In this document: positions 10,248-10,343 of the stretch, piece after piece
Layout of the letters: each line of letters begins with the position of its first letter
Numbering within the stretch: position 1 is the stretch's first letter
The notes under the pieces: generated by a model
Told to the model about the DNA's origin: nothing
Database searches by the model: none
The model's input: the letters and a program-made list of their open reading frames with translations, nothing else
Source of the DNA: an uncultured Bacilli bacterium
GTDB lineage: Bacteria; Bacillota_I; Bacilli_A; RFN20; CAG-826
Length of the DNA stretch: 64,000 nucleotides
Direction of reading: 5' to 3'
Assembly (NCBI GenBank): GCA_944363525.1
Contig: CALVUF010000003.1
Coordinates: forward strand, 42,306 to 106,305
Translations under genes and position numbers: made by a program

Positions 10248-10329
10248 GCTTGTTCCTCCTTTGCTTGTGAACTTAAGCGTTTAAGTTAATTACATATTAC
10301 AAGCCGCCGGAACGCATATCAACAAAAAA

Positions 10330-10343
10330 TGTAAGCGCTTACT
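10330..10343. promoter_or_regulatory. Near-consensus catabolite-responsive element (cre) or LacI-type operator, TGTAAGCGCTTACT, immediately upstream of a TTGATA-17-TAATAT promoter for the 8694..10247 lipoprotein gene
   Basis: It contains the 12-bp perfect palindrome GTAAGCGCTTAC. On the minus strand it reads AGTAAGCGCTTACA, matching the optimal cre TGTAAGCGCTTACA at 13 of 14 positions. The -35 and -10 hexamers (minus strand) lie at 10317..10322 and 10294..10299. Confidence 0.6.

Follow-up and report, generated by a model that had tools for sequence, protein, structure and literature searches.

A conserved candidate cre-type operator upstream of the promoter of a predicted starch-binding lipoprotein gene in a reduced-genome Bacilli lineage

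We analyzed a stretch of 64,000 nt from an uncultured Bacilli bacterium (the window, over whose full length all window counts below were made), in which a palindrome resembling a catabolite-responsive element (cre), here called Box 1, lies just upstream of the promoter of a lipoprotein gene. The window carries genes for RecU, DnaD, RNase Y and YmdB together with a class B RNase P RNA, and its RecA shares 89% identity with the RecA of Candidatus Enteromonas pullicola. Candidatus Enteromonas belongs to order RFN20, family CAG-826, and has genomes of approximately 1.2-1.8 Mb (PMC8035907); as judged by the RecA placement, the source organism is a member of a reduced-genome Bacilli lineage of order RFN20, beside Candidatus Enteromonas.

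The lipoprotein promoter and its cre-type box

The lipoprotein gene and the elements upstream of it are arranged as follows.

8694..10247, minus strand: gene for a lipoprotein of 517 aa with lipobox LVAC, an InlB-B-repeat-like N-terminal module and SusE/SusF/X25-like modules
10255..10260, minus strand: ribosome-binding site (RBS) AGGAGG, 7 nt ahead of the ATG
10270..10287, no strand assigned: Box 2, palindrome AACTTAAACGCTTAAGTT, proposed operator of a short LacI-family regulator, covering about +1 to +18
10294..10299, minus strand: -10 hexamer TAATAT, separated from the -35 by a 17-nt spacer, from consensus scan and alignment
10317..10322, minus strand: -35 hexamer TTGATA, from consensus scan and alignment
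10330..10343, no strand assigned: Box 1, candidate cre-type operator, TGTAAGCGCTTACT on the plus strand and AGTAAGCGCTTACA on the gene strand, centred at about -49.5 from the predicted start

Read along the gene strand, the order is AGTAAGCGCTTACA-TTTTTTG-TTGATA-(17 nt)-TAATAT-GTAATT-AACTTAAACGCTTAAGTT-CACAAGCAA-AGGAGG-AACAAGC-ATG, with the ATG at 10247..10245 and transcription predicted to start near 10287. The first-pass annotation had described a palindrome next to this promoter; its sequence and coordinates agree with ours, and the promoter was recovered by the consensus scan. TTGATA-17-TAATAT matches the consensus at 9 of 12 positions and is one of only two promoter-like sites in the interval 6000..12200.

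The core of Box 1, GTAAGCGCTTAC at 10331..10342, is a perfect 12-bp palindrome. On its own this means little, since the window holds 21 perfect 12-bp palindromes where about 16 are expected, which is near the chance number. The match to the cre consensus is more specific: the 14-mer has a single mismatch both to the ideal cre TGTAAGCGCTTACA and to the degenerate 14-mer consensus TGWAANCGNTNWCA, and it matches the 15-mer consensus WTGNAANCGNWNNCW exactly. Matches within one mismatch of the ideal cre are expected 0.009 times per 64 kb, and TGWAANCGNTNWCA at up to one mismatch gives 8 strand-matches at 5 places in the window, where 2.4 are expected.

For comparison we collected related loci. The lipoprotein family is small, with 24 matches in the protein database. 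A scan of species-representative genomes gave 199 confirmed relatives, from which 80 loci were kept; these come from Clostridia (Christensenellales, Oscillospiraceae and Lachnospiraceae, including Roseburia and Agathobacter) and from Bacilli metagenome-assembled genomes (MAGs). Motifs in related DNA were counted over 86 non-redundant loci (1.43 Mb). The close ortholog set comprises 8 species, namely the window and the loci L012, L008, L009, L014, L004, L013 and L006; the latter seven are species-level, and their lipoproteins are 48-88% identical to that of the window. The neighbours upstream of the lipoprotein gene differ among the close loci and sometimes have the opposite orientation.

When the intergenic regions of the 8 species are aligned, islands of identity remain at Box 1, the -35 hexamer, part of the -10 hexamer, the 18-bp palindrome, and the RBS with the ATG, and the rest has diverged. 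Within Box 1 the positions G2, A4, A5, C7, G8, C9, T10, T11, C13 and A14 are invariant, variation being confined to positions 1, 3, 6 and 12; the forms seen in the close loci are AGTAAGCGCTTACA, AGAAAGCGCTTACA, TGCAAGCGCTTTCA, GGGAAGCGCTTACA, TGTAAGCGCTTTCA, CGGAAGCGCTTACA and TGTAAACGCTTTCA. The gap between Box 1 and the -35 hexamer is 7-8 nt in all eight loci (7 nt in the window). The hexamer itself is TTGACA in six of the seven other close loci, and TTGATA, as in the window, in L012. Three distant Bacilli MAG loci with lipoproteins 34-36% identical to that of the window (L038, L041 and L046) show the same order of a cre, 7-9 nt, TTGACA or TTGATT, a -10 hexamer and Box 2. Among the related loci, 11 have a cre placed 53-60 bp ahead of Box 2, compared with about 0.2 expected by our own arithmetic from the background rate.

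According to crystal structures of CcpA-cre complexes, Arg22 reads a guanine and Leu56 the central CpG; these bases and the two-fold mate of the guanine are the only ones fully conserved among cre (PMC3074128). The corresponding contact bases of Box 1, G2, C7, G8 and C13, are invariant in 8/8 sites. Box 1 also has a GCGC centre, which is typical of high-affinity cre in B. subtilis (consensus TGAAAGCGCTTTCA; PMC3463425). The conservation profile of Box 1 thus fits a cre well. Decisive in our view is that Box 1 is kept at the same distance from the -35 hexamer in seven further species-level loci; together with the match to the ideal cre at 13 of 14 positions, this bears out the earlier description of a cre-type element abutting the promoter. 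Judged from sequence and conservation, Box 1 is a genuine conserved cre-type operator just upstream of the lipoprotein promoter.

In five Lachnospiraceae loci (L052, L059, L074, L077 and L087), the place of the cre is taken by a GCGCTTTTGTT-like motif that precedes the -35 hexamer by about 12 nt and always contains GCTTTTG.

The motif recurs once more at a promoter in the window.

16335..16348, no strand assigned: second candidate cre, TGTAACCGCTTTCA, an exact consensus match

The second cre lies 13 nt upstream of TTGACC(16362..16367)-16-TATTAT(16384..16389) and precedes a 51-aa open reading frame (ORF; 16454..16609), which is followed by a tRNA-Leu gene (16688..16772). It is 14/14 identical in L012 amid diverged flanks, and the 51-aa ORF shows conservation at the protein level. 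The second cre is centred 23 bp from the middle of its -35 hexamer; for Box 1 the distance is 17-18 bp, half a helical turn closer. Since this second conserved cre precedes an unrelated gene, a pleiotropic regulator is favoured. Whether the motif recurs upstream of other sugar genes had been put forward earlier as a check, and the outcome is divided: recurrence is borne out by the second cre at an unrelated promoter, and no further intergenic site was found in about 170 kb of clade sequence.

A cre-like sequence inside the sugar-binding-protein gene, TGAAACCGATGTCA at 5393..5406, was set aside. It occupies the same codon position in L008, L009 and L014, where it is degenerate at T1/G2, and it probably reflects coding conservation; we do not regard it as a convincing cre.

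Box 2 and the short LacI-family regulator

Box 2, which the first-pass annotation did not contain, begins about 7 nt past the -10 hexamer and has the core CTTAA-N4-TTAAG at 10272..10285. Sixteen of its positions are invariant in 8/8 species (invariant positions ACTTAAACGCTTAAGT). The only exact match to the core in the window is Box 2 itself, and the 86 related loci contain 71 exact matches, compared with about 1.4 expected; 68 of the 71 fall within the 460 nt around the lipoprotein gene start, upstream of the gene, in 52 of the 86 loci. With up to one mismatch allowed, Box 2 is present in 66/86 loci, and in 46 loci it lies no more than 30 nt downstream of a promoter of the form TTGAnn-N16-18-TAnnnT. 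The Lachnospiraceae loci carry two copies, 43-61 bp apart (47 being the commonest spacing), both downstream of the -10 hexamer. The two boxes of the window are distinct in sequence: Box 2 bears T and A where a cre needs G2 and C13, and the Box 1 half-sites TGTAA/TTACT fail the CTTAA-N4-TTAAG pattern, which Box 2 satisfies exactly.

A candidate for the protein that reads Box 2 is encoded next to the lipoprotein gene.

7893..8651, plus strand: gene for a short LacI/GalR-family regulator of 252 aa, PF00356 only, antisense between the lipoprotein and amylase genes

PF00356 (E = 3e-13) is the only Pfam match of this protein; there is no Peripla_BP match, and its core comprises approximately 190 aa, compared with approximately 270 aa for the usual two-lobed LacI/GalR core. 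In an AlphaFold model built with 26 homologs (predicted local distance difference test score, pLDDT, 89), the best whole-length fold matches are DNA-bound CcpA and PurR, with query-normalised template-modelling (TM) scores of 0.58-0.66, and we read the protein as a compact variant of the LacI/GalR fold. Its Tyr24 aligns with CcpA Arg22, the tyrosine being invariant in 26/26 homologs, and Leu60 aligns with the hinge residue Leu56 of CcpA and is nearly invariant. The short LacI-family protein is not CcpA as judged by the NCBIfam model TIGR01481 (ccpA), on which it scores 31.8 bits against a cut-off of 442; every other NCBIfam model is likewise far below its cut-off. A profile search returned 226 clusters (50% identity) at E < 1e-30, and the best 150 of the 226 are mostly 240-310 aa long.

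About 85 of 91 loci have the short LacI gene in antisense orientation between those for the lipoprotein and the amylase, and the Box 2 motif co-occurs with it across the related loci. In the species represented by L004, the gene is gone from its usual position and Box 2 is kept; this species has a 44%-identical short LacI copy (P0046), which adjoins a second GH13 gene in another assembly (L092), and a search for Box 2 in L092 did not find it. Based on the position of Box 2 and its co-occurrence with this gene, Box 2 is likely the operator of the short LacI-family repressor.

The alpha-glucan cassette and its surroundings

Downstream of the lipoprotein gene, the cassette comprises the following features.

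8656..8685, no strand assigned: GC-rich hairpin of 10 bp between convergent gene ends, with T6 on the plus strand at 8686..8691; putative terminator of the short LacI gene
6161..7855, minus strand: gene for an enzyme of glycoside hydrolase family 13 (GH13), maltodextrin glucosidase/cyclomaltodextrinase-like, first gene of the downstream block
712..6164, minus strand: MalE/MalF/MalG/MalK-like genes of a maltodextrin ATP-binding cassette (ABC) transporter, the ATPase gene frameshifted near 1655..1671

The N-terminal module of the lipoprotein matches the Pfam family Flg_new (Listeria/Bacteroides repeat) and, by Foldseek, the InlB B-repeat; a search of NCBIfam returned no family for the lipoprotein. 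Its AlphaFold model (pLDDT 83.7) gave significant matches in the PDB only to starch-binding folds: SusF (4fe9, E 4.7e-11), SusE (4fch and 4fem, about 1e-8) and the X25-2 module of Sca5 (7rpy, 8e-6), each with a probability of 1.00. The two SusE structures carry maltoheptaose or cyclodextrin, and 7rpy comes from Sca5 of Ruminococcus bromii. The low global TM-scores are what a flexible multidomain protein would be expected to give. The lipoprotein is therefore modelled as a SusE/SusF/X25-like protein and predicted to bind starch at the cell surface. In about 85 of 91 loci, genes for a GH13 maltodextrinase and a MalEFGK-like transporter accompany the lipoprotein gene. The Sus and X25 fold matches and the GH13 and MalE/F/G/K-like neighbours give good support to the alpha-glucan assignment, and the glucan-utilisation role assigned to the gene at first pass holds.

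The MalK-like ATPase gene (712..2404) appears as two tblastn pieces, in frames -3 and -1; L012 has a single ORF of 564 aa in its place. The split gene is either a pseudogene or an assembly error.

The arrangement of the cassette raises the possibility that the lipoprotein promoter drives all of it. The gap between the short LacI gene and the amylase start is 37 nt in the window, 23-52 nt in the close species (unambiguous gene calls) and 63 nt in the median of 79 loci. A search for Box 2 or a cre between these two genes gave no exact match, and chance-like hits with one mismatch in 3 loci. A sigma-70-like promoter was found upstream of the amylase gene in 1/79 loci, compared with 74/82 upstream of the lipoprotein gene. 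The hairpin at 8656..8685, which has only a weak U-tract in the lipoprotein direction, looks like a one-directional terminator on the LacI side; a hairpin is present at the convergent ends in 66/70 loci, and a crude heuristic places the T-run towards the LacI gene in 22 loci and towards the lipoprotein gene in 7. In L004, where no gene intervenes, the lipoprotein and amylase genes are contiguous. The tiny gap, the lack of operators, the near-absence of an amylase promoter, the one-sided T-run and the contiguity in L004 point to possible expression of the whole cassette from the lipoprotein promoter. Carried further, this would make the locus a non-contiguous operon, widely conserved in gut Firmicutes, in which (i) the lipoprotein promoter with its cre and Box 2 is the sole point of control, (ii) transcription, which the hairpin would stop only in the LacI direction, crosses the repressor gene antisense and carries on to the GH13 and ABC genes, these having no promoter of their own, (iii) induction silences the repressor by transcriptional interference, and (iv) the repressor belongs to a minimal LacI subfamily. 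We put this forward tentatively and consider it doubtful as a whole. If true, control of the entire locus would rest with the cre and Box 2, induction by read-through would be a self-reinforcing switch, and the repressor would represent a previously uncharacterised LacI subfamily, its members about 250 aa long, in which Tyr takes the position of the recognition Arg and the operator is CTTAA-N4-TTAAG.

Elsewhere in the window, 18279..19265 holds what look like gene remnants, a 155-aa piece of an AraC protein with the helix-turn-helix only and a 176-aa piece from the C-terminus of an alpha-L-rhamnosidase; they lie upstream of an intact rhaB-rhaA-rhaD-SDR cluster (19314..23551), and no cre was found in this rhamnose operon. 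A flavin mononucleotide (FMN) riboswitch (43359..43473) precedes the gene for the S component of an energy-coupling factor (ECF) transporter. The class B RNase P RNA occupies 51256..51575, and an opposite-strand ORF of 178 aa (50834..51370) overlaps its first 115 nt (51256..51370). Large ORFs outside any Pfam family lie at 30037..33763 (549 and 712 aa, minus strand) and at 10399..13105 (480 aa, directly upstream of the cre, and 383 aa); Pfam searches of the 51-aa ORF behind the second cre, of the 480-aa upstream ORF and of 11954..13105 gave nothing significant.

Control of the promoter and comparison with known systems

We propose that the lipoprotein promoter is under dual control, by a CcpA-type regulator at the Box 1 cre, probably repressing, and by the short LacI-family protein at Box 2 on +1, and on balance we lean modestly towards this scheme. 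Box 1 would be bound by a global regulator of the CcpA type, a LacI/GalR protein that has the arginine needed to read the guanine and is activated by serine-phosphorylated HPr (HPr-Ser-P) when a preferred sugar is available. Occupancy of Box 1 would lower transcription, as the bound protein would abut or overlap the -35 hexamer and the docking region of the alpha C-terminal domain, and Box 1 would lie on the helical face tied to repression rather than to activation of the ackA/pta type. At Box 2, the neighbouring short LacI-family protein would block initiation until released by an inducer of the maltodextrin type. With both sites acting together, the lipoprotein would be made only when alpha-glucan is present and better sugars are absent, and the downstream GH13 and ABC genes would come under the same control if transcription reads through. 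We infer both the pairing of proteins with boxes and the sign of control from the sequences and positions of the boxes, their conservation, the co-occurrence of Box 2 with the short LacI gene, and the features of the protein.

The sign could be the opposite; for a site so placed the textbook rules are equivocal. A LacI-family dimer probably has a footprint of several base pairs beyond the 14-mer on each side, which would reach the -35 hexamer and the alpha-subunit docking region. In B. subtilis, the cre of ackA and pta are centred at -56.5 and -55.5, and hence about 23-24 bp from the -35 centre; Box 1, at 17-18 bp, is about half a helical turn off this spacing, which argues against it being a cre for class I-type activation of the lipoprotein promoter by CcpA with glucose. 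Such activation would accord with the general rule that a cre upstream of the -35 usually activates, as at ackA, pta (its cre listed at -55) and ilvB (PMC3463425), and this rule is why the sign may be the reverse of that proposed. There are also B. subtilis cre that repress from similar positions, at -48 (yckB), -45 (levD) and -41 (gntR), and cre-dependent repression applies to all of amyE, malA, yvdG and msmX, the starch and maltodextrin genes (PMC3463425). According to a passage in the same source, what CcpA does varies with the helix face, and a site at -39 is among those giving the strongest repression in L. lactis (PMC3463425); this position is one helical turn from the Box 1 centre at -49.5. 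Glucose activation of a starch-scavenging surface protein would moreover be physiologically implausible. We chose repression on the strength of the precedents at -48, -45 and -41, the helix face, a footprint that would reach the -35 hexamer, and the repressed starch genes; given that CcpA binds, we regard repression as fairly probable, and activation at Box 1 as quite unlikely.

The identity of the protein at Box 1 is the second matter to be weighed, and several points count against CcpA. No ccpA, hprK or ptsH was found by Pfam in the window, and a tblastn search for ccpA and ptsH in 92 related loci with B. subtilis queries found none, a result that is uninformative for the whole genome; apart from the genes for short LacI proteins, it picked up just a handful of full-length LacI genes, unrelated and in distant loci. 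Resemblance to cre is common among sugar-specific LacI-family operators. The approximately 170 kb of clade sequence yielded two intergenic cre and no more, too few for the demonstration of a regulon. The CcpA/HPr machinery is also not guaranteed, because RFN20 is a reduced-genome lineage and most Tenericutes-like lineages of the wider group are reported to be without phosphotransferase (PTS) systems (PMC7301438). Some of these observations also favour a reading in which Box 1 serves a different sugar-specific LacI/GalR protein of full length, encoded elsewhere in the genome, MalR/MdxR-like and responsive to a particular sugar rather than to HPr-Ser-P: the lineage may be without a PTS, ccpA was not found in the window or the related loci, and the pattern TG...CG...CA is shared by many LacI-family operators, so that sequence alone cannot separate them from cre. 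This reading is, however, at odds with the equally conserved second site at an unrelated small-protein gene, which points to a pleiotropic factor, with a conservation profile that includes the bases CcpA needs, and with a cassette that already has a dedicated local regulator and operator, and we judge it unlikely. The first-pass annotation had offered the local short LacI-family protein as another regulator acting at Box 1. This alternative is not supported: the protein has a separate and better candidate operator in Box 2, on the start site, and its invariant Tyr replaces CcpA Arg22, the reader of the conserved cre guanine. The simplest reading gives each box a protein of its own, Box 1 being bound by a LacI-family protein of the Arg22 type and Box 2 by the short one. 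Some cross-binding is kept as a minor alternative because the inner ten bases of the boxes are identical at nine of ten positions in this clade (TAAGCGCTTA and TAAACGCTTA). Box 1 would then be an auxiliary operator of the short LacI-family protein, and with both boxes, 58-60 bp apart, bound, the promoter would be looped or clamped, for which the paired Box 2 motifs of the Lachnospiraceae loci offer a parallel. Yet those pairs do not flank the promoter, the outer two half-site positions differ (TG/CA in 8/8 species, CT/AG in 66 loci), the short LacI-family protein has Tyr where a guanine-reading Arg is needed, a spacing of 58-60 bp is about 5.5 helical turns and would place the boxes on opposite faces, and Box 1 and Box 2 show no co-variation in the Bacilli loci, all of which makes this arrangement very unlikely. 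Finally, Box 1 might have been a chance match or the terminator hairpin of the upstream gene (10399..11841), considering the near-chance number of 12-bp palindromes and the T6 run that follows Box 1 on the gene strand. A palindrome without a loop would form at most a 4-bp stem, the RNA fold of 10310..10400 is no stabler than shuffled sequences (z = +0.72), a terminator scan found no terminator in the region of Box 1, and the 8 species retain Box 1 next to upstream genes that vary and in some cases lie on the other strand. We consider this last reading hardly credible; the conservation pattern, the unremarkable fold and the empty terminator scan effectively rule it out.

Returning to the CcpA-type reading of Box 1, it is supported by the sequence, its conservation and the recurrence of the motif, and the presence of CcpA, HPr and HPrK is needed to complete it. 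A cre beside a starch-utilisation gene is textbook Firmicute biology, and the cre was first defined at the amyE operator. Box 1 is nonetheless useful as an annotation anchor, marking the promoter through which a starch-scavenging cassette is predicted to be regulated in a gut lineage that is uncultured and has a reduced genome, and it predicts that CcpA-type catabolite control is kept in this lineage despite the wider group being reported as mostly without PTS. The more interesting leads are the family of short LacI proteins of gut Clostridia and Bacilli, its probable operator, and the conserved embedded antisense arrangement. These predictions bear on when gut Firmicutes display starch-binding proteins.

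Compared with known systems, Box 1 shares with the cre of B. subtilis amyE (amyO), malA, yvdG/mdxE and msmX the 14-bp pseudo-palindrome with G2/C13 and a central CpG, and in both cases alpha-glucan genes of Bacilli-class organisms are served. The B. subtilis sites overlap the promoter or the start (+4, +6, -28, -15), whereas Box 1 lies wholly upstream of the -35 hexamer, as do the activating cre of ackA and pta and the repressing cre of yckB and levD. In geometry Box 1 is nearest to the repressed yckB and levD, and it is the second cre (16335..16348) that fits the ackA/pta spacing. Sugar operons under CcpA and a specific LacI/GalR repressor combine a global cre with a pathway operator on the start at one promoter. 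The arrangement proposed here would differ from the usual one in its local repressor, an unusually short LacI-family protein of about 250 aa with Tyr for the recognition Arg and a CTTAA-N4-TTAAG operator, whose gene lies antisense within the cassette.

The cassette as a whole resembles the Gram-positive polysaccharide utilisation loci (gpPULs) of Roseburia and Eubacterium rectale in combining GH13, an ABC transporter and a LacI-type regulator (Sheridan 2016, PMC5320581), and cassettes of the window type are also found in Roseburia, Agathobacter and Lachnospiraceae loci. The surface protein is similar in its modules to SusE/SusF and to the X25 proteins of R. bromii (PMC9112005); unlike the outer-membrane Sus proteins or the cohesin/dockerin parts of the amylosome, it is predicted to be a lipoprotein on a Gram-positive-type membrane.

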